DNA from: Eledone cirrhosa
Taxonomy: Eukaryota
Reading direction: 5' to 3'
DNA length: 64,000 nucleotides
Assembly (NCBI GenBank): GCA_964016885.1
Contig: OZ024742.1
Span: forward strand, 44,578,001 to 44,642,000
The notes under the pieces are model-generated. The model was not told the origin of the DNA. It ran no database searches and was given only the letters and a program-made list of their open reading frames with translations. Below are positions 507 through 31,862 of the stretch, piece after piece. Numbering within the stretch: the stretch's first letter is position 1; each line of letters begins with the position of its first letter. The position numbers and the translations under genes are program-made.

Positions 507-3500
507 TTACAGACACATACTCAGAGAAGGCCCATTCATTCGGGCCATACTTGCTTCTCTCACCCATCTTTCAACAAAATGCTGGGAAGAGAGCACTTCC
601 CTCTCTACCCTGATTTTCCTTTTCAGATGAAATTTGAAAAAGTTAATCAGGGCATCACCGAAGAGGTAAGTGCTCGTCTTCAACCTTTTCAAACGTGTCC
701 ATCATACTATCTCTTTCGCCATGGCCACCAGACAGATAAAAACTGCCTGCCCTTCCCGGCTAAAGGAAGGGGGCGGGGCAATCCTCACGATGGACTCAGC
801 TGATAGCTGGATCCGTCCTACACGTGACAGCAGGTGTTCGACATAAACCCACAAGTCAGCAATGCTCGGACACTGGACGAGTGCGTGCAGGACGGTTTCG
901 TCGCCCTGCGCGCATCTCGGACATGCCCGGCTGACGGCACCTCCATGCCTGTAGAGTTTATCCTGAACTGGCAAAGCTCCTCGGTAGCACTGCCAGGCCA
1001 GGGATTTCTGGAAGTTGTCCATAGGCCCCGGCCCGAAAGTTCTTCCGAAGAGATTGGCTAGTTGATTTTCGTCGACGCCTAGAGTTTCTCCAAGTACGTC
1101 GTCGCTCTTCCCCTCCACTAATCCCCTATAGAACGCCAAGGTGGAGTTTCCACCGATCACATTGCCCGATTGGTCGAGGGCTGTGAGCGCCTGAAGACAT
1201 TCCAGTCTCCAAGCGCTCCCTCTCGGTCTTCGCTTGACCCAGGACTGCAGCTCCGTCAAGGAGACGAGCTGGGGAAAAACCCGTCTAGCAAACGGCGACC
1301 ACACCTGATCACCGTCGAGGAAGAGGTGGAGATGTCGTAGCCTGAGCGCGTGTCTGCGCATCATCAGCCACGGCATGCCCAGCCCTCCACGTAGCGGGTG
1401 TTGACAGCAGATGGACCGCCTGACCATCGGAGCGCGTCCCTTCCACAAGAAGCGAAAGAGCAAACGCTCCAGCGCAGTCAGGCGGGGCTTAGGACAAGGT
1501 ACGACGGTCAGGCGGTAGTAGATAACGGATGCGATGTACGCATTCGCCACCTCCGCTCGACCTTACAGGGATAGCTTCCTCTCGGCCCATTTCTGGGTGA
1601 GAGAAGACACCCTGCTCGTCACCTCGTCCCAGTTTTTGTCCGTTTTTGATGTTGAACGGTTCCGAAAGGTGACCGTTCACTCTCACTACAGAGCAGATGT
1701 CGCTGTGCATGGCAGCGATCCAGCCTCTGAAGACGGGCCCAAAGCCAGCCGCCCTCAGGACTGCCGCTAGGTAACGATGGTCGACCCTATCGAAAGCTTT
1801 CGACTGATCTAAATTGATCAAAGACCCACCCGTGCCAGGTTCCCTAGCTACCCTCTCTACGATGTATCGCATGAGGTGGAGGTTGTCGTGGATGGATCTG
1901 TCGGGAATGGCGCATGTCTGTGCCTCTCCCACCAGACCACCAACGTCAAGCGCCAACCTCTTTGCTAGCACCTTGGCCAAAATCTTGAACTCTGTGTTTA
2001 GCAGAGTTATGGGCCTAAAATGATCTATGTTATCCCCCTTGTTCGGATCCTTTCTCAGCAGCGCCACCGCTCCTCGGCTCACAGAGCTGGGAATTCTCCC
2101 GTTCTGTTGCCAGTTGCAGTAGACGTCCGCCAAGAGGCCTCCGAACAAGTTTGGCATTTGTACGTAAAGTTCATAGGGCAGACCATCCAAACCAGGCGAT
2201 TTACCCCTTGTGCAACTAGTCATTGCATCCCGTACTTCAGCGGTTGTTATCGGCTTTTCGCAACACTCCGCCTCAGTGGCCGAAAGCCGCGGCAGTCCGT
2301 CGAGGTATACACTAAAGTCCATCCCTCGACCCGGCCCGCCACTGCCCCCGAACAGTTGAGCGAAGTGTCGCTGAAAGGCATCACACATTTGCCCGGGATC
2401 GAGTAGCATGCGCCCGTCGTGGTCCACCAAAGACCGGATCGTGGCTTTGTTGCCACGACGCGCCTCCGCCACTCGGGCCCATTGAATGGCTTTCGTCCCC
2501 TCGTGTCTGAGAGCACGCACCCTAGCTCTGACAACGCAGCCTTCGTGCTTTGCATTGAAGAATTGGTCAAGGGCCAATTTCGCCGCAAGTACGTCGGTCG
2601 CGATGCCTTTGCTAAGCGCCTCATCTAATTTTCTAACTAATTCTCCCTCTGCTCTATTTTTCTCTATTGCTAAAGTCATACTAAACCTAATGGACTCTAT
2701 TCTAATTGCTCTTTTCAGAGCAAACCACCACTTGTTGTTGACGATGGCCTCCGTCAACGCCCGCTTAACTAGTTCGCTAATCCGGTCTCTGTAGGCCTTG
2801 CGCGCTGGTAAGGACGCGTTTAGCTTCCAGTAGCCGGGTCCTCGTCTATGAAGCCTATCTAAGTCAAGCACACAGATCACGAATTTGTGGTCCGTGTAGC
2901 TGACTATCTTGAATTGTGGACAGCCTATGCTAGACCTATCTATTTCCCTACAAAATACTCTATCTAGATATGATCTGGATGACCCTATGCGATTTGTCCA
3001 AGTCCACATTGGTACATTCGGGAAATCCATTCGGTACCTGTCAGACAGTTCAAAACGTCTGAGCAGGTTGGTGAGACTCTTGCACCCTCCTTCCCTATCC
3101 ACTAATCCCACACAATCCCAGCGTGCATCTAAGATCCCGTTCCAGTCGCCCACTAACACTAAAGAGCGGGACGTTCCAAGAAAGGTCTCCAGACGCCGGA
3201 AGAAATCAGGCCGCCCTGCTCCTGTCGGGGCATAGACGCCCACTAACCTGAAAGCTTGCCCGTCTCCGCTGGTCACGTCCAGCACCACCAACTTACCTTC
3301 TGGGTCCAGGAAGATGACCCGTATGGCAAGATCCAAACCTCTCCGAAAAAGCACAGCAACTCCTCCCCCGATCCCGGACGGCTGGGAGATGCGTACACAT
3401 CGTAGCCGCCGAAGATCGGTGCGAAAGCCTGTGCTTCGGAGATTCTGGTCTCGCTGATGGCCACTACATCTATGTTTAGTGACCTGAGGTCGTTGAGCAG

Positions 3501-3566
3501 GTGGCCCTGCTTCCATGACGACCCCAAGCCACGCGCATTTATGCTGCCTATTCTGAGTGAGGTCAT
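507..3566 (-). pseudogene. Tx1 copy A ORF2 (APE endonuclease + RT + Zn motif), disrupted
   Basis: MTSLRIGSINARGL...ISETR, GVAVL, VGDWN, SYLDR, TDH (APE). KSPGLDG, RPITLLN, NLDQSKAFDRVDH (RT). Frameshift at about 3365-3369, a deletion of about 360 bp at about 1644 that removes YADD, and a TGG>TGA stop at 702-704. The true C-terminus is ORF 507..692. Confidence 0.92.
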
Positions 3567-3600
3567 GTTGAAAAGGAATGGAAAAGATGGGAAAGACCAC

Positions 3601-5572
3601 TTACCTTACTTCTCGTAGGGGAAGGACGGTTTTTCCATCCTTTTCACTGCTTGTGGCCTCCTCACGAAGGATGTCCTTATAAATCCTCCTGGAGAGTGCT
3701 TGTCGGAAGTCTCCGATGTCTTTGGGGAATTTTTGTTTTAGTGTCATGTACGTTTTCTGTGTGATGCGAGTGATTTGTATGTGGGGAGGTGGTGTGAATT
3801 TTGGGGTTGTTGTGTAGTCTTTTTCTGTGATGCTGGTGTTGTGTTGGATGTAGTGTAATAATTGCTTGTTGTTCAAATTTAATGCTGTGTAGTGTGTATC
3901 GTTTTGGTTGTTTTGTTTTGTTTGCGTTTGTTGTGGGTTTGTTTCTGTTTCGCATTTTGGTGACTTTTGTGGTGTAGGTGATGGTGGTGTTGGAGTTAAT
4001 GATGGTGATGGTATTGGTGTTTGGGTTGATGGGGTTGGTGATGCTGGTGTGGATGGTGGCATATCTGTCCTAACTTTTTTGTTTCTTAGTTTATTTGTTT
4101 CCCTCTGTATTTTGTTTTTGGAGGGGGAAGGAAGAGAATTTTTTCTTTTTTGGTTTCTTTTTTTTTTTCCGGATATCGTTTCCCACTCCTCGTCGTCACA
4201 ATCTGTCTCCAGTTGTGATAGGCCGGGGAGTGGAAAATCCTCCACAGCCGTTAGTTTTGGTTGTGGTGTGGTGGATGGTGTAGGCGCTGGTGCTAGTTCT
4301 GAAGCGTTGGGTGGTGGTGGTGTTGGTTCTGCTACTGTTGCTGGGGTTGTTGCTGTTACAGTTGCTTCTGTTGTTGCTGCTACAGTTGTTGCTGCCATCT
4401 CTGCTACTGGTGGTGTTGATGGTTGTGTCACTGGGGTGGGTAGGAGAGGTGGCCTCAACCTTTTAGCCTGAGGGCAGAAAGCCCTTAGGTGGGTTCCTTC
4501 ACCACAAACGACACACCTAGGTCTTCTGCCCTCGACAATTACCGTGAGGTGGTTGCCGTCAGTGAGGTCTATTACCTCTGGGATCTCCTCAATGCTTTTT
4601 TGGTCCGCTTGGATTAGGAGCTCCATCCCAGATCCGGACCAGTTTTCCCGCTTTTCTTTTGCTATTGCTATTATTTTCGTGTTGGCTTCGATGCCGGCGA
4701 GGACAGCCGCTATTAGCCAGGGAATTTCGATGGCCGGTGGAACGTGGGTCACCCTGATCTTTACGAGTCTCTGGCCACAATAGCTTGGGACGAGTGTGAA
4801 GTCGTCACTTTTTTAATGGGGCCATGGAGTGTTCTCTAGCCTCCTCTGGTGTTTCAAAGAACACATCCACGGTTCCATACTTTTGCCCACGTCTGATGTG
4901 GGTTTTTCTTGCCCACACATGTCCCAAAGCTTTTTGGATTTGGGACTCGGATGCCCGTTCCACTCGGCGCGATTTTACATTTATTGTTCTATACGACACG
5001 GTGCATAGGCGCCGATGCTCCATTTTATTAGGTGGGGGGGTGAGGCTGACCCTGTACCCATTTTTCTTTACCATTTGTTTGGCATTTTCTAAATCGTCTT
5101 GAGTTACCGTGAATGCTTCAAATTGTTTTGCTACTATGGCGAAACTGAGGGTCGATTTCATAATGTCATTGTTGTTGTTGTTGCTATCGTTATTTGTGTT
5201 AATATTAATTTTAGTTTCAGTTGTGGTGGTGGTGACGTCAGTCGTCTTTGGTGCGGAAGAGTCCATTTTGCTTGATTTCATTTCGACATCACGAGTTAAT
5301 TTATTTTTTTCTTCTTTTGTTTCTGTTGTCGCGGTGGTGGTGGGGGTGGTGGTTGTCGCGGTGGTGGTGGTGGTGGAGGCTTTAACACCTGCAGTCATTG
5401 GTAATGGCGGGAAATGAATGTCTGCCTGAGACAAATTTAAAATATTGCTACTGCTTATATTTTTTTTTTTTGTGTTGGCCAACGTAGTAACATTTACAAT
5501 GGTGGTGTCGGTATGAGGTGTTAATTTGTGAGGAAGGCTTTCAGCTGCTTGTTGCAGAGGTGAATTAGCCAT
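3601..5572 (-). pseudogene. Tx1 copy A ORF1 (gag-like, CCHC zinc knuckle, Thr/Pro-rich linkers), one frameshift near 4810
   Basis: ATG at 5572 (MANSPLQQ...). ORFs 4805..5848 and 3601..4752 join as ...PLKSDDFTLVPSYCGQRLVKIRVTHVPP if one base is removed from the T6 run at 4809-4814. The knuckle reads CVVCGEGTHLRAFC. Confidence 0.82.
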
Positions 5573-5782
5573 TTTTTTTTTCAAAGAAATTTTTTGATAA
5601 TAATAAAAGTTAAAATTTTGGGCACAAGGCCCCAATCTTTTTGGGTGTCCTTTTCGGAAAACAATGTATGTGTGCTTATAAACAGTTAACAATAAAATTT
5701 TCCATAAATGGCAATTTTTAACAAACGGAAATAACAAACCTTTGCGGAGCTCACGATGATACGATTTACTACGTAGGTCGCC

Positions 5783-5830
<48 letters not shown>
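5783..5830. repeat. (TAA)n microsatellite: tail of Tx1 copy B, abutting the 5' end of copy A
   Basis: 16 AAT units read directly. Confidence 0.98.
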
Positions 5831-5832
<2 letters not shown>

Positions 5833-8800
5833 TTTCTTTATTAACCACAAGGGTTTACATAAAGTAGACATCAAGGGCAGTGCAGGACAATACAGGACGG
5901 TACAAATGGGCATTTCTGCGTGTAAAAAACAAAAACAGAGGATGTAACAAAAAAATAACAATGAAAAATTCCAAAATAGGGGGGAGACTTCGGAGGGACA
6001 TTTGTGGAGAAAGCCCAGTAAAAGGCCACAGTGACCCTGACCACCAAGGCAAGTTCCCTCTCCCAGTTTTCCACCTTTAATTTACAGATACGTACTCAGA
6101 GTAGGCCCATTCACTCGGGCCATTCTTGCTTCTCTCACCCATCTTTCAACAAAATGCTCGGAAGAGAGCACTTCCCTCTCTACTCTGATTTTCCTTTTCA
6201 AATGAAATTTGAAAAAGTCAATCAGGGCATCACCGAAGAGGTAAGTGCTCGTCTTCAGCCTTTCAAACGTGTCCACCATACTATCTCTTTCGCCATGGCC
6301 ACCAGACAGATAAAAACTGCCTGCCCTACCCGGCTAAAGGAAGAGGGCGGGGCAATCCTCACGATGGACTCAGATGATAGCCGAATCCGTCCTACACGCG
6401 ACAGCAGGTGTTCGACATAAACCCACAAGTCAGCAATTTTCGGACACTGGACGAGTGTGTGCAGGACGGTTTCGTCGCCCTGCGCGCATCTCGGACATGC
6501 CCGTCTGACGGCACCTCCATGCCTGTAGAGTTTATCCCGAACTGGCAAGGCTCCTCGGTAGCACTGCCAGGCCAGAGATTTCTGGAAGTTGTCCATAGGT
6601 CCCGGCCCGAAAGTTCTTCCGAAGAGATTGACTAGTTGATTTTCGTCGACGCCTAGAGTTTCCCCAAGTACGTCGTCGCTCTTCCCCTCCACTAATCCTC
6701 TATAGAACGCCGAGGTGGAGTTTCCACCGATCACATTGCCCGATTGGTCGAGGGCTGTGAGCGCCTGAAGACATTCCAGTCTCCAAGCGCTCCCTCTCGG
6801 TCTTCGCTTGACCCAGGACTGCAGCTCTGTCAAGGAAACGAGCTGGGGAAATACGTGTCTAGCAAACGGCGACCACACCTGATCACCGTCGAGGAAGAGG
6901 TGGAGATGTCGTAGCCTGAGCGCGTGTCTGCGCATCATCAGCCACGGCATGCCCAGCCCTCCATGTAGCGGGTGTTGACAGCAGATGGACCGCCTGACCA
7001 TCGGAGCGCGTCCCTTCCACAAAAAGCGAAAGAGCAAACGCTCCAGCGCAGTCAGGCGGGGCTTAGGACAAGGTACGACGGTCAGGCGGTAGCAGATGAC
7101 AGACGCGATGTACGCGTTAGCCACCTCCGCTTGACCTTTCAGGGATAGCTTCCTCTCCGCCCATTTCTGGGTGAGAGAAGCCACCCTGCTCGTCACCTCG
7201 TCCCAGTTTTTGTCCGTCTGGAGGTCTGGACCGAACCAGTCCCCTAGCAATTTAACCGGTCCGTCCGTCCAGCGTCCGACGACGCTGTTGGACGGCATGG
7301 ACCTGCCTCTCCAGGTGCCGAGCTGCAGGCCCACTGACTTTTCCTGGTTGATCATTGCTCCTGTCACCGCTTCGTATTCTCTTAGTGTAGTGCCGATCGC
7401 CTCGATGTGTTTGGCGTTCGACACCACTACGGTGACATCGTCCGCATATGCTGACACGGATCTTCCGCATCCTAGTTCGCGCGGGACGCCTCTCAACGTC
7501 TCCAGTTTGTGCAGTAATGGCTCGAGAGTCAATACGTACAAGAGGGACGAAAGGGGACATCATTGGCGGACCGAGTGCATGATGTTGAACGGTTCCGAAA
7601 GGTGATCGTTCACTCTCACCACAGAGCAGATGTCGCTGTGCATGGCAACGATCCAGCCTCTAAAGACGGGCCCAAAGCCAGCCGCCCTCAGGACTGCCGC
7701 TAGGTAACGATGGTCGACCCTATCGAAAGCTTTCGACTGATCTAAATTGATCAAGGACCCACCCGTGCCAGGTTCCCTAGCTACCCTCTCTACGATGTAT
7801 CGCATGAGGTGGAGGTTGTCGTGGATGGATCTGTCGGGAATGGCGCATGTCTGCGCCTCTCCCACCAGACCACCAACGACAAGCGCCAACCTCTTTGCTA
7901 GCAGCTTTGCCAAAATCTTGAACTCTGTGTTTAGCAGAGTTATGGGCCTGAAATTATCTATGTTATCTCCCTTGTTCGGATCCTTTCTCAGCAGTGCCAC
8001 CGCTCCTCGGCTCACAGAGCTGGGAATTCTCCCGTTCTGTCGCCAGTTGCAGTAGACGTCCGCCAAGAGGCCTCCGAACAAGTCTGGCATCTGTACGTAA
8101 AGTTCATAGGGCAGACCATCCAAACCAGGTGATTTACCCCTTGTGCAGCCAGTCATTGTTTCTCGTACTTCAGCGGCTGTTATCGGCTTTTCGCAACACT
8201 CCGCCTCAGTGGCCGAGAGCCGCGGCAGTCCGTCGAGGTAGACACTAAAGTCCATCCCTCGACCCGGCCCACCGCTGCCCCCGAACAGCTGAGCGAAGTG
8301 TCGCTGAAAAGCTTTACACATTTGCCCGGAATCGAGTAGCATGCGCCCGTCGTGGTCCACCAAAGACCGGATCGTGGCTTTGTTGCCACGACGCGCCCCC
8401 GCCACTCGGGCCCATTGAACGGCTTTCGTCCCCTCGTGTCTGAGAGCACGCACCCTAGCTCTGACAACGCAGCCTTCGTGCTTGGCATTGAAGAATTGGT
8501 CAAAGGCCAATTTCTCCGCAAGTACGTCGGTCGCGATGCCTTTGCTAAGTGCATCGTCTAATTTTCTAACTAGTTCTCCCTCCGCTCTATTTTTCTCGAT
8601 TGCTAAAGCCTTACTAAACCTAATGGATTCTATTCTAATCGCTCTTTTCAGAGCAAACCACCACTTGTTGTTGACGATGGTCCCCGTCAACGCCCGCTTA
8701 ACTAGTTCGCTAATCCGGTCTCTGTAGGCCTTGCGCGCTGGTAAGGACGCGTTTAGCTGCCAGTGGCCGGGTCCTCGTCTATGAAGCCTATCTAAGTCAA

Positions 8801-9346
8801 GCACACAGATCACGAATTTGTGGTCCGTGTAGCTGACTATCTTGAATTGTGGACAGCCTATGCTAGACCTATCTATTTCCCTACAAAATACTCTATCTAG
8901 ATATGATCTGGATGACCCTATGAGATTTGTCCAAGTCCACATTGGCACATTCGGGAAATCCAATCGGTACCTGTCAGACAGTTCAAAACGCCTGAGCAGG
9001 TTGGTGAGGCTCTTGCACCCTCCACCCCTATCCGCTAATCCCACACAGTCCCAGCGTGCATCTAAGATCCCGTTGCAGTCGCCCACTAACACTAAAGAGC
9101 AGGACGTTCCAAGAATGGTCTCCAGACGCCGGAAGAAATCAGGCCGCCCTGCTCCTGTCGGGGCATAGACGGCCACTAGCCTGAAAGCTTGCCCGTCTCC
9201 GCTGGTCACGTCCAGCACCACCAACTTACTCTCTGGGTCCAGGAAGATGGCCCGTATGGCGAGATCGAAACCTCTCCGAAAAAGCACAGCAACTCCTCCC
9301 CCGATCCAGGACGGCTGGGAGATGCGTACACATCGTAGCCGCCGAA
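5831..9346 (-). mobile_element. Tx1/L1-clade LINE, copy B, 5'-truncated inside the endonuclease; same family as copy A
   Basis: Colinear with 266-3410 at high identity. Retains SAYADDV. Nonsense codon in the QG motif (VRQ*CPLS, 7560-7562) and a 1-nt frameshift near 6260. ORF2 C-terminus ends at 6082. Confidence 0.93.
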
Positions 9347-9690
9347 AAGTGAACAGTGTATCAGTCATGATATACACTCAAATACATGCTTGTGTGTGTG
9401 TACGGAGGGGGAATATATCATGTGTAGTGTTGGCGAAGTTCGGGAAGCATGGACGTTTTGAAGGATGCAGTGTCCCAACAGCTAATAACTGATGCAGGTA
9501 GTTTGTTCCATGTTTCAGCAACTCTGAGTACGAAAAGATGTTTCCAAAAGTCATGGGAGCTGTACTGTTTTCTGATTTTGAAAGCATGTCCACGGGTTAA
9601 ACACATGGAATTCAAAAAGATGCTCAGGGTTGTTGTTGGCAAGATGGTTAATAATTTTGTGGGTGTCTACCAAGTCAGTTGCCAGACGTC
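9347..9690 (-). mobile_element. CR1-clade LINE 3' fragment
   Basis: ORF 9418..9642 contains TRGHAFKI...LFVLRVAETWNKLPASVI...SFK, matching the CR1 ORF2 C-terminal RGH-K...RV..WN.LP...FK signature. Confidence 0.75.
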
Positions 9691-13778: not shown

Positions 13779-13925
13779 AAACATATATATATATATTATT
13801 GAATAAAATGACAGGAAGCCAGATTGGTGAAATTCCTTTAAAGTTTGATTTTTGCAGACACTATATATATTTCAATGGCCAGCTCTATCCAATGGTGAAC
13901 CACCAATTTCAATGAATATATATAT

Positions 13926-16900
13926 ATGAGTGATGTAAAACTACCGGAAGAATTTACCAATGACCACACAGTAAATATCTATGGGAACACTTTAATCAGT
14001 GAACAAGAACAACAAATCCTAAAGTTACCACCAAAATTTGCCATCTACAAAAAGATTAATCCTATGGAATGCAAAACGGAGCTGGAAAAGTGTTTCACAA
14101 AAATACGTTGGAATGCAAAGGTAAACAACAACAACAATAATAACGGTAGTAGTAATATAAACAATAACTCTGGGTATAGAAATAACAGCCATAACCATAA
14201 CAATGGCAGGAAAGTGAGAAATAGTGATAATGGTAATAATACTAGCGATAGACAGAACAACAACAACCACAATAATAATAATAATAGAAACGTTAACCAC
14301 AGACACAGCAACAGTGACCACAGTAGTAATAACGGTAACAATACGAACAACAACAACAACAATAACCACAGTGGTAATAATGGAAATAGTACATGTAGCA
14401 ACATCAACAAAAACAAGAAACATAATAATAGTAACAACCACAATGGTAGAAATAGCAGTAACAACAACAACAATAACGGTGAAGTAAACAACAATACATC
14501 TAGCAATCATAACAATAATAATATTAATGCTAAGGATAGAAACAACAACAACCACCATGATAACAATAATAGCAACACACACAACTATGACGATAGAAAT
14601 AACGACAACCCCTTAGAGAAACTATTTTTCAACCCAGCTGACAAAACATATAAGATGGGTAATATCTATCCTACGAGGTTACCCTTTAATAAAAGAGTTT
14701 GCATACCACAACAAATAGATGACGAGACGGAGGCACAGTTCACCATAGCTAGAAATAAGATTAGACAAGTAGTAGACAGGTACACTATGAGACAGAGCAG
14801 ACCAGAGGCCCAACAACTTGGGATAAAACCTGTAGAAGGCTTGGTTAGCCTCAAGCAGCGCACAAGGGATGGTGAGGTAGTGTGTCTACCCACAGATAAG
14901 TCTGGTAGGATGTCAATAGATAGCATGCCGAACTACATCGAGGCAATGCAACCCCACATCACCAACACGAGCGAAGTTGCACAACTAACACACGATGGGA
15001 GAGAAAAAATCCTCAACGCTCACATGATGATGTGGACTGACATCCTAAAGCCAAGCAGACGCACTGCCAACAACTTCCAGGCGTCTAACAATGGCATACC
15101 ACCCTTGTATGGGCTCCGCAAAGACCACAAGACAGTCGACGACCCGACAATAGGACCACCAACAAGACCGGTATGCGGAGCTAATATAGCTAGCAACTAC
15201 AGGATCTCCTACTTCCTCTCAATGGTTATACGCCCCATAATCAAGATGTCCCCAGATGTATGTGAAAGTACAGAGGACCTCCTCAGCAGAATCAGTGAGT
15301 GCAACAAAAACAGGAGCCTATCCAACTGCATAATAGGCAGCATGGATGTGGTGTCACTGTACCCATCCATTAACATTGATTTTGCTGTGAAAAGATGTGT
15401 GGAGATGATCATTGAGAGTGAGGTGGAGTTCTGCGACGTCGACACAGACGAACTGGGCCTCCTACTTAGGCTTACCTACGACACTGACTACCTAGACAGC
15501 CATGACCTTAGATGTTTCTGCCCTAGTAGACCTATAAGAGGTAGACCCCCCACCATAACCTCAATGGCTAAAAAGACTCCCATAGGAAGGTGGATTGGGT
15601 GGACCAAAGCTATACGGACCCCCCAAAACACTGATCAGGTAAGAAAAATGGTCGCACATGCAATAGGGGCTAGTATCAAAACTACCCTAAAGGGCCACAT
15701 ATTTAAGTTCAATGAGAAAATCTACACCCAAAATGAGGGAGCAGCCATCGGCGTCAGCATAGCTGGCGATGTTGCCAACCTTTTCATGGTATGGTGGGAA
15801 AGGAGACTTAAAGATCTCCTTAATGAAAGCTCCATAGACCTCATCATGTACTCTCGTTATGTAGACGATATCAATATAGTTATAAGAACACCCCCACTAG
15901 AGAGCACTAACAAGTTTGATTTAGAACGTAGCACGATGGAAAGCATCCAGCAGATAGCTAATTCCATACACCAGAGTATAACTCTAACTATAGACTTCCC
16001 TTCCAAACACCCTAACAATAGACTACCTGTATTAGACACAGAACTCTGGATTAACACTATAGACGAGAGAGCCCAAATTCTCCACTCACACTATGCTAAA
16101 CCCATGGCCTCCAAATACCTGATACTCAAAAACTCAGCAATGTCCAGTAGTGCTAAGTTTAATATTCTGATCGCAGATTTGGTACGAGTGATGAAGAATG
16201 TGTCCAGCATGTGCGACCCAACAGAAATGGAAGGACACATCCAACACTTCATCAACCGCATGCAGTTCTCTGGCTACAACCAAAGAGACAGAGTCAGAGT
16301 ATACGAAGGAGCCATGGAAAAGTATAAGACCCTCATAGAACTGGACATGAAAGGAATTTGCCCACTATACAGGAGCAAATCATGGAATAGCTTAGATAGG
16401 GCTAGACATAAGATAGGGAAGGCCACATCATGGTACGACAACCAGAGATATCAGAGTGTCATGTTTGTGGACGCCACCCCTGGAGGGAAATTAGCTAACC
16501 AGTGTAGAAAGGCCCTGAGAAAGACCCACTTAAAAATAAAGGTGGTAGAAAAGCCAGGAACCACCATAAAATCCCTGATCAGCAAAACCTACCCTTTTAA
16601 GAAAACCCACTGTACCAATAGGAAATGTATCATATGTAAGGTGAACCCCCGGATAAACTGTAAAACTAGAAACGTAGTCTATAGCATAAGATGTACAGAG
16701 GGTACTTGCAGAAACACGACAACAACATACATAGGTGAGACAGCTCGTAGCATAGGTGAAAGGATAGACCAACACTGGGGGGAACTAAAAGGACGAAAAA
16801 ACGGGTCAGTACTATACGAACATGCTAGACAACATCATGACGGTAACATAGACAACATAGAAATTAGAATAATATCTAAACATAGGAATGACCCAGCAGA

Positions 16901-17015
16901 TAGGCAAATCAGAGAGGCCAGTGAAATAGAAATTAGAAGACCAAAGCTAAACAGAAAGAATGAGTGGAACAACAACAACACCCAAACAAACAACACTGAC
17001 CTAAGAGAAGTATAA
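13926..17015 (+). CDS. PLE polyprotein, 1029 aa uninterrupted: Asn-rich insert, RT, Cys-rich linker, GIY-YIG endonuclease
   Basis: PTDKSG, LYGLRKDHK, RPV, SMDVVSLYPSI, QNEGAAIG, RYVDD, LPVLD. Linker CTNRKCIIC. EN NVVYSIRC...YIGETARSIGERIDQH...H...RQIREA...LN. The ATG sits at the (TA)n junction and is probably not the native start. Confidence 0.92.
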   Translation: MSDVKLPEEFTNDHTVNIYGNTLISEQEQQILKLPPKFAIYKKINPMECKTELEKCFTKIRWNAKVNNNNNNNGSSNINNNSGYRNNSHNHNNGRKVRNSDNGNNTSDRQNNNNHNNNNNRNVNHRHSNSDHSSNNGNNTNNNNNNNHSGNNGNSTCSNINKNKKHNNSNNHNGRNSSNNNNNNGEVNNNTSSNHNNNNINAKDRNNNNHHDNNNSNTHNYDDRNNDNPLEKLFFNPADKTYKMGNIYPTRLPFNKRVCIPQQIDDETEAQFTIARNKIRQVVDRYTMRQSRPEAQQLGIKPVEGLVSLKQRTRDGEVVCLPTDKSGRMSIDSMPNYIEAMQPHITNTSEVAQLTHDGREKILNAHMMMWTDILKPSRRTANNFQASNNGIPPLYGLRKDHKTVDDPTIGPPTRPVCGANIASNYRISYFLSMVIRPIIKMSPDVCESTEDLLSRISECNKNRSLSNCIIGSMDVVSLYPSINIDFAVKRCVEMIIESEVEFCDVDTDELGLLLRLTYDTDYLDSHDLRCFCPSRPIRGRPPTITSMAKKTPIGRWIGWTKAIRTPQNTDQVRKMVAHAIGASIKTTLKGHIFKFNEKIYTQNEGAAIGVSIAGDVANLFMVWWERRLKDLLNESSIDLIMYSRYVDDINIVIRTPPLESTNKFDLERSTMESIQQIANSIHQSITLTIDFPSKHPNNRLPVLDTELWINTIDERAQILHSHYAKPMASKYLILKNSAMSSSAKFNILIADLVRVMKNVSSMCDPTEMEGHIQHFINRMQFSGYNQRDRVRVYEGAMEKYKTLIELDMKGICPLYRSKSWNSLDRARHKIGKATSWYDNQRYQSVMFVDATPGGKLANQCRKALRKTHLKIKVVEKPGTTIKSLISKTYPFKKTHCTNRKCIICKVNPRINCKTRNVVYSIRCTEGTCRNTTTTYIGETARSIGERIDQHWGELKGRKNGSVLYEHARQHHDGNIDNIEIRIISKHRNDPADRQIREASEIEIRRPKLNRKNEWNNNNTQTNNTDLREV

Positions 17016-17284: not shown

Positions 17285-17325
17285 ACCACTGACGATGTTG
17301 CAGATGTGCAACGAAAGATTTATGT
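17285..17325 (+). ncRNA. Minimal type I hammerhead ribozyme motif in the PLE1 pseudo-LTR
   Basis: CTGACGA at 17289-17295, stem II GTTGCA-GATG-TGCAAC, GAAA at 17313-17316. The near-palindromic AGATTT forms a minimal stem III with a TTA triplet. Stem I is weak. Confidence 0.65.
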
Positions 17326-17529
17326 AAACTATATATATATGTGTTTGTCTATATTGTATCTGTATTATTTTTGACCGCCGGTCAGTCAATGGCAACATTG
17401 AGGACCGAGTAAGTTAGATCGCAGATATATATATATAAAAGACAGCGAGAAGCGAAAACCAACCAAACAGTGAGTGTGTTCTGTTATTAATTCTGGCAAT
17501 ATTACGCAAATATGACCCTCCCCAAATAT

Positions 17530-17533
<4 letters not shown>

Positions 17534-17572
<39 letters not shown>
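17534..17572. repeat. (TA)n microsatellite at the PLE1 3' junction
   Basis: Read directly. Confidence 0.95.
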
Positions 17573-27660: not shown

Positions 27661-28059
27661 AATGATGATGAATTGTTAATTCTATAACATAAAATATTAA
27701 AGTTGGAGACTAAGCTAGTGAGACAAGCACTGAAGCACCATTAACTACATATTTAGTCTCAGTTACTATAAGTGGTGAGTTTAATACCTGACACCCGACT
27801 TTAATTCCTCAGAACTTTATAAATCATGCATATTTTAAAATAAAATTATACAAATACGTTTTCGAAGGTGTAGATAACGACTAGCACAATGAAATGTGTT
27901 TGCACTTTATCGTCGTAGAAACTACATTAGGTTCCAGCAGAAAATCTATTATATTGTATTATCCTATTTGAAACAATTCGTCAACAAGAAATGTTTCAAA
28001 ATCTTTTATTCACAGCTGTATAAAAATATGATAATATAATGCTTGGAATGGTTGCTGCG

Positions 28060-28600
28060 CAATATCGAGTCGTTCTAGGTTGGGCAGCTTTCAACAAGAA
28101 CAAGGAAATACTAACATCAAAACGAGTTTCCTATCATTCGAAGGCTCAGATCTTTGATACTTACTTCCTACCAGTTGTGTTATATGGTATTGACTGTGTT
28201 AATTGGACGACAAGATCACTTCAAAAGCTCTCTATATTCCAGAACCACATCACCAGACTTATAACTAGCAAGCAGTTCAACGACCGTATCTGTATCAGTG
28301 AGCTGCTCAACATTACCAAACTTAAACTAATTACATCAATTGTCAAGTCAACAGTACTCAAACTATACGGCCATATAAAAATATCAACTGGTGGTGTGAG
28401 TAGGTTATGCCTGGAAGGAAGGTTGGCTGGTAAGAGAAGCAGTGGCCGGCAGCCAAAACGATGGCTTGACAATGTCTATTCATGGACTGGACTTGATCTT
28501 TGCTCTTAGAACTCTGCTGCTGGTGATCGAACTTTGTGGAGAGAGCTATCACATGTTGATGCGGAGTCTGCAACTGTCGGAGATTAGCGTCACAAGAAAA
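28060..28600 (+). mobile_element. RTE-clade LINE 3' fragment
   Basis: LGWAAF...KAQIFDTYFLPVVLYG...LKLYGHI...LEG...GKRSSGRQPKRWLDNV. Confidence 0.8.
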
Positions 28601-28830: not shown

Positions 28831-29752
28831 ACAAAACATTGGAAAGTATGATGAAAAAAAATTCCCAAATTTACGTTTAGTCTACTACAAACACAAACCA
28901 AAAGTATTCAGTAAACTAAAGTGTAAAATGGATCCAGCTCACGTTAGGACACACTAAAGAAATGAAATTGCCTCGTCCATCGAACACACTCTTTGTGGCA
29001 GTATGTATGTCATTGAGGTACACCCTTTTATTGGATATGTTAACCAGACCTGCTAACCTCTAAAAACCCAAATGGAGAGTACCATGAAAAAAATGCCCCA
29101 AAACGGGGAGAAATGAGGCAAAATGGGGAGATGTTACATAATGAAAGCTGTACCCCTTTTCACAAGAGAAGACATCTCTCACCCACCCCAAAGTGGGTGG
29201 TAGATCTCTCCGTCTGACGCGGAAAGTCGACAGGTCTGTATTAACCTGTCAATTTGCACATAAAATGTTGGTTCCAACACTCGAACTAAGAACATTCAAG
29301 TGACGCAGATTATAAAATTAGATGAAAATCTGAGACTAATGAAAATTCTTGAAATTTTTTTTCGGAATCAACGTTATTTTGATTCGTAACTTTTTCAATG
29401 TCTTCCCGCCAAAAATGTATGTAATGCAGTCTTTTCAACAGAAATATTTGCGTGTCATTTGGATGCAAGAGGATTATAATTTCACAAGGTATTTATCCAT
29501 TGGCCTAGCATTCATTACTTTATTTATATATATATATATTTCGTTTCTGAATTTGTTTAGCAAGATTCTTTATCTGAAATCGTGTGTTGAAACCGATATT
29601 GTTATACTTTGGGAGGGTCATGTTGCCAATAAGAAACACATGCACCAGTTGCTTTCACTTCAATTTATTATAATAAATTTATAATAAATTTATAAATTTA
29701 TAAATTTCTGGTTGGTTGGTTGGTTCCACAACCAGATAGTTGTTTATATATT

Positions 29753-29795
29753 GTCATAGTTCTTTCGTCACACACTCTGTGACCTCTTCAGTGAC
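29753..29795 (-). ncRNA. Minimal type I hammerhead ribozyme in the PLE2 pseudo-LTR
   Basis: Minus strand reads GTCA-CTGAAGA-G-GTCACA-GAGTG-TGTGAC-GAAA-GAACTA-TGAC: 4-bp stem I, 6-bp stem II, minimal stem III, CTA triplet. Confidence 0.8.
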
Positions 29796-29996: not shown

Positions 29997-31862
29997 TTAA
30001 TTGTAAGTTGTGATGTTGCTGTTCCACTCATATTTTCTATTTAATTTTGGTTGTAATTCTTTTATGTTTATTGCCTCTGTAATTTGTCTAAACATTGCGT
30101 CTTTTCTGTGTGTAGATTCTATTTTTATTTCTATGTTCTCTAATTTACCCTTGTGTTCTATTTTAGCATGTTGGTAGAGTACAGATGATTCTTTACTATT
30201 TTGAAGGTCTCGCCAGTGTTCATTTATCCGTTCCCCTACACTACGAGCTGTCTCACCTATGTACACTATATTTTTGTCTCTACATTGTCCTTCAGTACAT
30301 CTTATGCTATACACTACATTTCTAGTTTTACAGTTAATATGGGGGCTTATTTTACAGGTTATACATTTCTTATCTATACCCTATTGAAAAGGGTATGTCT
30401 TGCTAATAAGTGTTTTTACGGAGGTACCTGGTCTTTCTACTATCTTAATATTGAGTTTATGTTTATTTAGGGCCCTTCTAAATTTGTAAGCTAATTCACC
30501 TCTAGGGGTTGTATCGATGAACATTACACTCTGGTATTTATTGCTATCATACCATGAGTTTATTCTATTAGCCTTGTTCCTAGTTCTTTCTATTCTATTC
30601 CAAAATTTTCTCCTATACAAGGGGCTGGTCCCATTTATGTCATTATTTACCATTTTTTCCCATTTGGTTCTGGCTCCTCTATACACTCTGATTTTATCTC
30701 TCGGATTGTAGCCAGAGAACTGCATACGGTGGATGAAGTGTTGTATGCGTCTCTCTAGTTCTTCGGGGTTGCACATGCGGGACACGTTTCTCATCACCCG
30801 TACCAAATCCGTAATCAGTATGTTGATTTTGGTATGGTCCAAAACGGCCGAGTTTCGGTGGATCAGATGTTTGGAAGTCATGTGTTTGGCATAATGGGAA
30901 TGGAGGATTTGTTTTTTGTTATTAATGGTATCTAACCAGAGCTCTGTGTCTAGTACAGGTAATCGATGGTTGGGGTGTTTACTTGGGTAGTCTATAGTAA
31001 CTCTAATGCTCTGGTGGATGGAGTTAGCTATTTGCTGGATGCTTTCCATTGTGTTTTTCTCTATTTCCTGACTGTTCTCTAGTGGGGGTGTCTTAACTAC
31101 GATGTTTATATCATCAACGTAGCGGGAGTACATTATCTGGGTTAAGGGGTCTTCTAATTGTTCTTTAAGTTTAAGTTTAAGTCTACTGTCCCACCATAAT
31201 AAGTTAGCTATGTCGCCTGCAATGCTAACACCAATGGCTGCTCCTTCCTCTTGGGCATATGTTTTTCCATTAAATTTGAACATATGTTCCTTAAGGGTTA
31301 GTTTTATGCTGGCCCCTACCGCATGTGCAATCATTTTCTTCAGTTCATCGTGGTTTTCGGGTGTCCGTATGGCTCTGGTCCACCCGTTCCATCTATCTGT
31401 GTGGGTTTTCTTGGCCATTGAGGTAATGGTAGGTGGTCTGCCTCTTGCTGGTCTTGTAGGGCACAAGTTGCTAAGGTCATATGTGTCTAGGTAATTATTA
31501 CTATAGGTAAGTTTAAGTAGGAGTCCCAGCTCACTGGTATCAATCCCACGGAACTCAACATTGCTCTCACTGATCATTTCTACGCATTTCTCCACAGCAA
31601 AATCCACGTCAATAGATGGATACAGGGACACAACATCCATACTACCTATTATGCAGTTTGTTAGGTCCCTAGATCGGTTACTCACGCCGATTCTGCTGAG
31701 GAGGTCCTCCGTGCTGTCACATACATCTGGGGACATTTCAATGATGGGGCGTATGATCAGGGAGAGGAAGTAGGACAGTCTGTAGTTACTAGCAATGTTA
31801 GCTCCACAGACTGGCCGTGTTGGTGGTCCCGCGACAGGGTCACTGCCCGTTTTATGGTCTTT
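29997..31862 (-). pseudogene. PLE2 RT-GIY-YIG ORF remnant
   Basis: ORFs 30381..31736 and 29997..30314 are in the same frame. The linker reads *GIDKKCITCKISPHINCKTRNVVYSIRC. Confidence 0.88.

Follow-up and report, generated by a model that had tools for sequence, protein, structure and literature searches.

The 64,000 nucleotides of Eledone cirrhosa DNA analysed here (the window; GenBank assembly GCA_964016885.1, contig OZ024742.1, positions 44,578,001 to 44,642,000 of the forward strand) contain two related copies of a Penelope-like element (PLE), designated PLE1 and PLE2. PLE1 lies on the forward strand and comprises a single open reading frame (13899..17015, 1038 amino acids from stop to stop; protein P0001) that encodes a reverse transcriptase (RT) followed by a C-terminal GIY-YIG endonuclease (EN). 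The copy is 5'-truncated, with homology to full-length relatives starting at ~13920, equivalent to residue ~130-170 of five long homologs. From there the frame runs through LPPKF, an Asn-rich tract, TDKSG (14892..14906; the DKG motif of PLEs in its family form DKS), RT motif A (SMDVVSLYP, 15339..15365, catalytic Asp at 15345), an insert of ~70 residues between two predicted bracing helices (15420..15629, limits approximate), a variant of RT motif B (15729..15779), an intact RT motif C (RYVDD, 15855..15869), the thumb, a zinc-finger-like linker of the form C-x4-C-x2-C-x7-C (16611..16661; Nematis-type in length by eye against Fig. S2 of PMC8557442, statements on published work referring here and below to excerpts of the cited articles) and the GIY-YIG domain (16671..16967) with its CCHH pattern and catalytic R, H, E and N. 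Pfam GIY-YIG is matched by relatives, not by P0001 itself, and Pfam RVT_1 gives only a weak match from residue 570, with the RT remaining below the Pfam cut-off. The Asn-rich tract (14124..14609) places 162 in-frame residues, 51% of them Asn, in the linker before the RT; at this level it is not common to the family, its best 60-residue window reaching 0.55 against ≤0.20 in 47 other members. Many contigs of the public run X2 cover 14124-14609, and the Octopus vulgaris relative P0003 has a Gly/Ser/Asn-rich stretch at the same place.

Downstream of the PLE1 frame, a minimal hammerhead (17285..17326, forward strand) is recognized from its CUGACGA core at 17289, a bulge, a 6-bp stem II, GAAA and a 2-bp stem III, with a weak stem I (stems I and III judged by eye). 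The 3' tail (17512..17572) repeats the start of the ORF (codons for MTLPKYNN) before it enters a (TA)n run, a pLTR-type end in a microsatellite. PLE2, on the reverse strand, is likewise 5'-truncated (coding region 30000..31862, ~72% nucleotide identity to PLE1) and carries an in-frame stop at 30381-30383 before the linker, after which the EN carries on in frame. Its minimal hammerhead (29753..29795, core at 29791) has a 4-bp stem I, and its 3' tail (29535..29621) holds an ORF start, MTLPKYNNIGFNTR..., that resembles the N-termini of full-length relatives and is followed by a TA run. Both copies therefore lack the N-terminus of full-length relatives, and both end by passing from the first ORF codons into TA repeats. 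Stem II differs in sequence between the two hammerheads, the 6 pairs and the 5' bulge being kept in both. A search for the core together with a stem II of at least 5 pairs returned two matches in the window, one after each ORF, where 0.01 matches are expected per shuffle of bases 1-34000. Rfam gave no match at the gathering threshold and missed both hammerheads, and neither fold stands out in stability (z -0.9 and -0.8), so that the call rests on the core pattern; the layout of both fits the minimal hammerhead of PMC4209133.

By every feature tested, PLE1 is a C-terminal EN+ PLE: it has a TERT-related RT with motifs A and C intact, an ORF that also encodes a CCHH-bearing GIY-YIG domain, and a pLTR-type 3' end with hammerhead and ORF start in combination with 5'-truncation. 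Elsewhere in the window, a pair of neighbouring non-LTR retrotransposons that resemble each other occupies 702-9377 on the reverse strand, with frames for endonuclease-RT and, upstream, ORF1-like frames (3601-5854), interrupted by stops or frameshifts; a short frame at 28024-28509 looks by eye like the C-terminal portion of an ORF from a non-LTR retrotransposon; and 34467-64000 holds two tandem arrays, very large and biased by strand (GC skew ~0.9, then ~0.7), in which both strands read as long open frames of low complexity.

The feature that sets the element apart is the distance between RT motifs A and B. In PLE1, the motif A Asp (GAT, 15345-15347, residue 483 of P0001) and the motif B Gln (CAA, 15729-15731, residue 611) are separated by exactly 128 codons in one open frame, as the first-pass annotation had noted, and the same 128 codons, with no indel relative to PLE1, separate the corresponding residues of PLE2 (31637 and 31253). 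The statement in that annotation that canonical PLEs have about half this spacing agrees with 57-60 in Fig. S1 of PMC8557442 (counted by eye: Penelope 58, Poseidon 60, Nematis of C. remanei 60, Neptune 57, Athena 59), from which ~70 extra residues follow for PLE1; the same rows give 84 for Naiad-1_Skow, 119 for Chlamys-1_tObl and, among TERTs, 110 for S. pombe, 115 for human and 149 for Tetrahymena. The extra segment had also been described as conserved in PLE2, and indeed its 70 codons are 69% identical at a dN/dS of 0.21, compared with 0.15 for the upstream core (a single pairwise Nei-Gojobori estimate between PLE1 and PLE2). The insert is under purifying selection. It is made up of an ExGxYL helix, short helices, a basic CPxR..GRxPT loop and RW..W..P. 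Across 138 aligned members sharing 20-70% identity with the window copy, single positions are held at E 83%, P 87%, R 88%, G 91%, P 88% and W 86%, and the loop half has a median net charge of +6 and is positive in 95% of these members.

Faulty assembly, a nested fragment or an intron that happens to stay in frame could also produce extra length as an artefact; introns are known from PLEs (PMC8557442, Fig. 1 legend), and the insert has a length divisible by three. We regard this as having a negligible probability in view of the protein-level conservation across members at 20-70% identity, the dN/dS of 0.21, the confident predicted fold and the public run X2, in which no well-supported joint skips the insert among the 15 of 98 joints listed; one listed skip (15496-15674, CA..AG ends) is a single contig of depth 17 against ~150,000. 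In that run, 16,192 contigs fall on the element and the depth climbs from 5' to 3' without a dip over the insert, a rise expected of an abundant, 5'-truncating retroelement. An origin of the insert as an internal duplication of a neighbouring helix was rejected by hhalign comparison of 5 segments, which found likeness only in overlapping columns, and a known domain was rejected on the grounds that Pfam returned nothing in the stretch beyond the weak RVT_1 match and NCBIfam nothing. The ESM Atlas neighbours in the insert search were short unnamed proteins only (0.87-0.90).

The insert is a family-wide trait and not a feature of one element. Relatives numbered 81 by single-sequence search and 200 by profile search (120 listed), and an exhaustive search gave 3,360 cluster representatives at E<1e-30 (150 of the 3,360 listed), these being clusters at 50% identity that include many fragments and whose tail may include other PLE clades. 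All 250 proteins with both motifs located, a subset of 386 collected proteins with some near-duplicate cluster members, have a spacing of 117-161, and a profile HMM of the insert built from 90 of them matches 244 of the 250 at E<1e-3; the profiles used for collection themselves included the insert, so insert-less sister elements could rank below the listed matches. Of the 128 DK motifs located among 148 long members, 112 read DKS; the EN lies C-terminal to the RT in 65 of the 66 members with a located EN, and in those 66 the CCHH pattern and the short Cys linker each occur in 55, the linker having 6-12 residues between CxxC and the next Cys across the family. Named hosts of members are Octopus vulgaris and Holothuria leucospilota, the best named match being an O. 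vulgaris protein of 69% identity, and neighbours in the ESM Atlas come from Mollusca, Ctenophora, Arthropoda and Nematoda, with other PLE clades possibly among them. A FastTree phylogeny of family members only (111 proteins, 452 columns, midpoint root) puts PLE1, PLE2 and the O. vulgaris protein together in a nested tip group. Two proteins deserve separate mention. P0266 (1517 aa) is the sole family member with linker and GIY-YIG motif before the RT, possibly through read-through of tandem copies or as a permuted form. P0080 bears the O. vulgaris annotation "dynein regulatory complex subunit 6-like isoform"; one part of it matches the element at 74% identity over 20% of the query, and we read this part as an exonised or mis-annotated PLE fragment.

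Motif B was spelled correctly at the outset, with QNEGAAIGVSIAGDVAN in PLE1 and QEEGAAIGVSIAGDIAN in PLE2, and its designation as atypical needs restating. The spelling does differ from the usual one, but the motif stands in normal register, and the Gln and the two Gly are retained, as in most cases is the Ala. Over 138 aligned members the counts are Q 138, G 138, G 120, A/P/S 133, I 133 and G 138, with mostly L/V after the last G, T/A at the place of the usual Ser and G at that of the usual Pro. Being of normal length and common to the members, the form G-G-[APS]-I-G is therefore better described as a family signature, of which EGAAIG is a local spelling, seen in PLE1, PLE2 and the octopus protein (an octopus-type sub-branch). 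The Ile takes the position at which other PLEs show Met and TERTs Gln. GGAIG, GGPIG and GAAIG have 0 occurrences in the supplement of PMC8557442, whose FASTA files cover the Naiad, Chlamys and Hydra families only.

The same interval between motifs A and B holds telomerase's insertion-in-fingers domain (IFD), and structural similarity of the insert to it had been proposed. AlphaFold models of the 719-residue RT-EN part (pLDDT 90.1) and of a 192-residue segment comprising palm and insert (pLDDT 94.7) agree with one another. The modelled insert has an 11-residue helix after the motif-A helix, several short helices and coil, with no sheet; a long helix and a hairpin come next, then motif B. Nearest to the whole RT among solved folds are TERTs, with Z up to 16.1. 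For the 192-residue model all Z are ≤6.2, and comparison with TERT rests for this reason on aligned length and rmsd, its scope being secondary structure and summary alignment numbers. Beetle TERT is not known to carry TRAP, and its segment, 242-352, has 64 residues fewer than that of human TERT; every one of its 111 positions aligns at 2.6 Å, which fixes the core common to both and leaves ~80 model residues unmatched. LINE-1 (109 residues at 2.2 Å) and a group II intron RT (104 at 2.7 Å) behave similarly. TRAP-bearing TERTs align over 119 residues at 3.4 Å (Tetrahymena) and 121 at 3.9 Å (yeast); Candida tropicalis TERT, which ranks first, gains ~15 residues beyond beetle (126-127) at 5.3-5.8 Å, and human TERT reaches 135-137 residues only at 10.7-11.3 Å. 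Wide and viral fold searches with the palm-plus-insert model gave palm-level matches only (best Z 6.1, none at E≤0.001). Superposition on TERT thus separated the proposal into two parts. By the models, the insert sits in the telomerase IFD slot, between bracing helices of the IFDa and IFDc type. The resemblance in structure did not hold up: in TRAP an extended beta-sheet predominates, flanked by two bracing helices (PMC10055720), whereas the modelled insert is helix and coil and gives no low-rmsd superposition on it. The predicted fold is likely one other than that of the telomerase IFD, and an independent origin of the insert is therefore likely.

A remodelled but true homolog of the telomerase and Naiad/Chlamys IFD, inherited from a PLE-TERT ancestor, with loss of the domain in the other clades that have a C-terminal EN, must be weighed against such an independent origin. 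It would account for the shared position between motifs A and B, for a spacing of 128 that falls within the TERT range of 110-149 and for TERTs being the top structural matches of the palm-plus-insert model, and the repeated loss that it demands is allowed by PMC8557442. We nonetheless think it quite improbable. No beta-sheet is predicted in the insert, the additional alignment with human TERT is obtained only at ~11 Å, the A-B segment searched against PDB sequences up to E 10 retrieved no TERT chain (one chance match at E 1.3), and the Trp/Pro/Arg pattern is by eye unlike the IFD rows of Fig. S1.

Regarding function, we consider it moderately probable, by analogy with telomerase, that the insert is a small helical module with a basic loop, gained independently and serving as a putative clamp on the RNA template or the primer-template duplex. 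The suggestion derives from the basic loop and from the TERT element in the IFD slot, which contacts template RNA and primer (PMC10055720). In the likely cycle, which follows established PLE biology, the element would be transcribed from its pLTR (PMC8557442, PMC11167929, PMC4209133); the ORF product would bind its own RNA and its GIY-YIG EN would nick AT-rich DNA, a step with which the TA junctions of PLE1 and PLE2 fit; and target-primed reverse transcription from the nick would leave 5'-truncated copies with pLTR ends and partial tandems (both steps as in PMC8557442 and PMC11167929). During reverse transcription, the putative module would grip the RNA template or the primer-template duplex and might thereby contribute to processivity or template capture, with a possible link to the altered motif B (Ile). 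Alternatively, the insert could be structural, for instance a docking surface for the protein's own N-terminal domain, the endonuclease or a second subunit. The conserved hydrophobic helix (ELGLYLAL) and Trp residues would suit such a surface, and a Poseidon protein is predicted to dimerise (PMC11167929); yet Arg, Gly and Pro of a strongly basic loop rank among the best-conserved residues of the insert, and the part of TERT that occupies this position contacts RNA and DNA (PMC10055720). We judge the docking surface unlikely.

The insert likely marks a large and apparently undescribed C-terminal-EN clade, set apart from the named clades by comparison of motifs and figure rows. The initial suspicion of a distinct lineage was well founded in that C-terminal GIY-YIG, short Cys linker, hammerhead and long insert are combined in what would be a very large PLE lineage. 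No description of the insert family was found in the supplement of PMC8557442 or in the literature covered, including excerpts of PMC3846280, PMC6515669, PMC12632851, PMC13159263 and a 2026 retrozyme preprint; Repbase, Dfam and subscription papers lay outside this scope. Searches for outgroups and flanked loci yielded 312 pattern matches in viral contigs and 93 in metagenome contigs, with 0 confirmed in either, and an EN-region search for outgroups gave 36 candidates, none significant, two further searches finding no conserved stretch. An alternative assignment places the family inside a clade that already has a name (Nematis most probably, with Neptune or a Coprina-related clade as possibilities), or makes it one already catalogued in Repbase or Dfam, the insert then being a lineage-specific elaboration only. 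The C-x4-C-x2-C-x7-C linker matches the short Nematis form of Fig. S2, the C-terminal EN, CCHH and hammerhead each have the canonical form, the helix that opens the insert looks by eye like the Nematis segment after the motif-A helix, and IFD-like regions occur sporadically in Coprina (PMC8557442). Against this stand the short spacing and MG[SAN] motif B in the Nematis, Neptune and Poseidon rows of Fig. S1, the lack of the three family motif B spellings in that article's supplement, the replacement of DKG by DKS and of GxKF by LPPK[FY], and an RT that Pfam RVT_1 barely recognises. The subclade assignment appears to us rather unlikely on this balance.

At its most far-reaching, the interpretation of a distinct lineage would imply a ninth major PLE clade, large, diverse and mostly overlooked by Pfam, whose profile is matched at E<1e-30 by as many as 3,360 of the 50%-identity clusters. 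In it, a helical and basic module that grips the template would have evolved independently in the IFD slot as a functional counterpart of the telomerase domain, alongside a motif B with rewired dNTP contacts. We advance this tentatively, as a possibility somewhat short of even; if true, it would offer a natural comparison for how the IFD slot confers processivity. According to PMC8557442, N-terminal-EN PLEs carry an IFD, unlike canonical PLEs, which was offered as a link to telomerase with the reservation that the domain was maybe gained repeatedly, the sporadic IFD-like regions of Coprina arguing against it as a shared derived trait. A C-terminal-EN family with a longer and, as predicted, differently folded insert breaks the correlation between EN position and IFD, and so favours repeated independent gain at a hotspot. 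Cephalopod and echinoderm genomes gain an abundant, poorly annotated repeat family, and the family provides a tractable RT for studying insert function at the IFD position outside telomerase.

Among known systems, Nematis is closest in layout: a single ORF leads from the RT through a short CX2-5CxxC linker to a GIY-YIG domain with CCHH, and the pLTR carries a hammerhead (PMC8557442). It differs in spacing (~60 compared with 117-161), in motif B (G[LM][AP]MG[SN]xL[AS]P compared with GG[AP]IG[LV]xx[TA]G) and in having DKG and GxKF where the insert family has DKS and LPPK[FY] (PMC8557442). Neptune is distinguished by ~20-30 residues from CxxC to the next Cys in the rows of Fig. S2 as against 6-12 (PMC8557442), and Penelope/Poseidon by ENs without the zinc linker present in the insert family. 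In Adineta vaga, Penelope elements also have a long in-frame Asn-rich tract in the ORF, there located in the RT-EN linker or before the thumb (~460-550 aa, 25-30% Asn; PMC3846280), while that of PLE1 lies upstream of the RT and is shorter and richer in Asn (162 aa, 51%). Hydra elements share the C-terminal EN, the hammerhead, (TA)n targets, a divergent motif B, a modified DK motif and aquatic hosts; as described in the excerpts of PMC8557442, they are without IFD and CCHH and have DKT and a CxCX5C linker, as opposed to the long insert, CCHH and DKS found here. Naiad and Chlamys likewise show extra sequence between RT3(A) and RT4(B) and (TA)n junctions, and the Naiad EN has both zinc motifs (PMC8557442). 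Their EN is N-terminal and they have no canonical hammerhead, in contrast to the C-terminal EN and hammerhead of the insert family; they have DKA instead of DKS, and the Naiad insert, at ~20 residues against ~70, is by eye of other sequence (PMC8557442). The telomerase IFD (IFDa-TRAP-IFDc; PMC10055720), finally, occupies the same topological slot at a similar total spacing, with TERT the nearest solved fold of the RT, but is largely an extended beta-sheet where helix and coil are predicted for the insert, which belongs to a retrotransposon ORF with an endonuclease.
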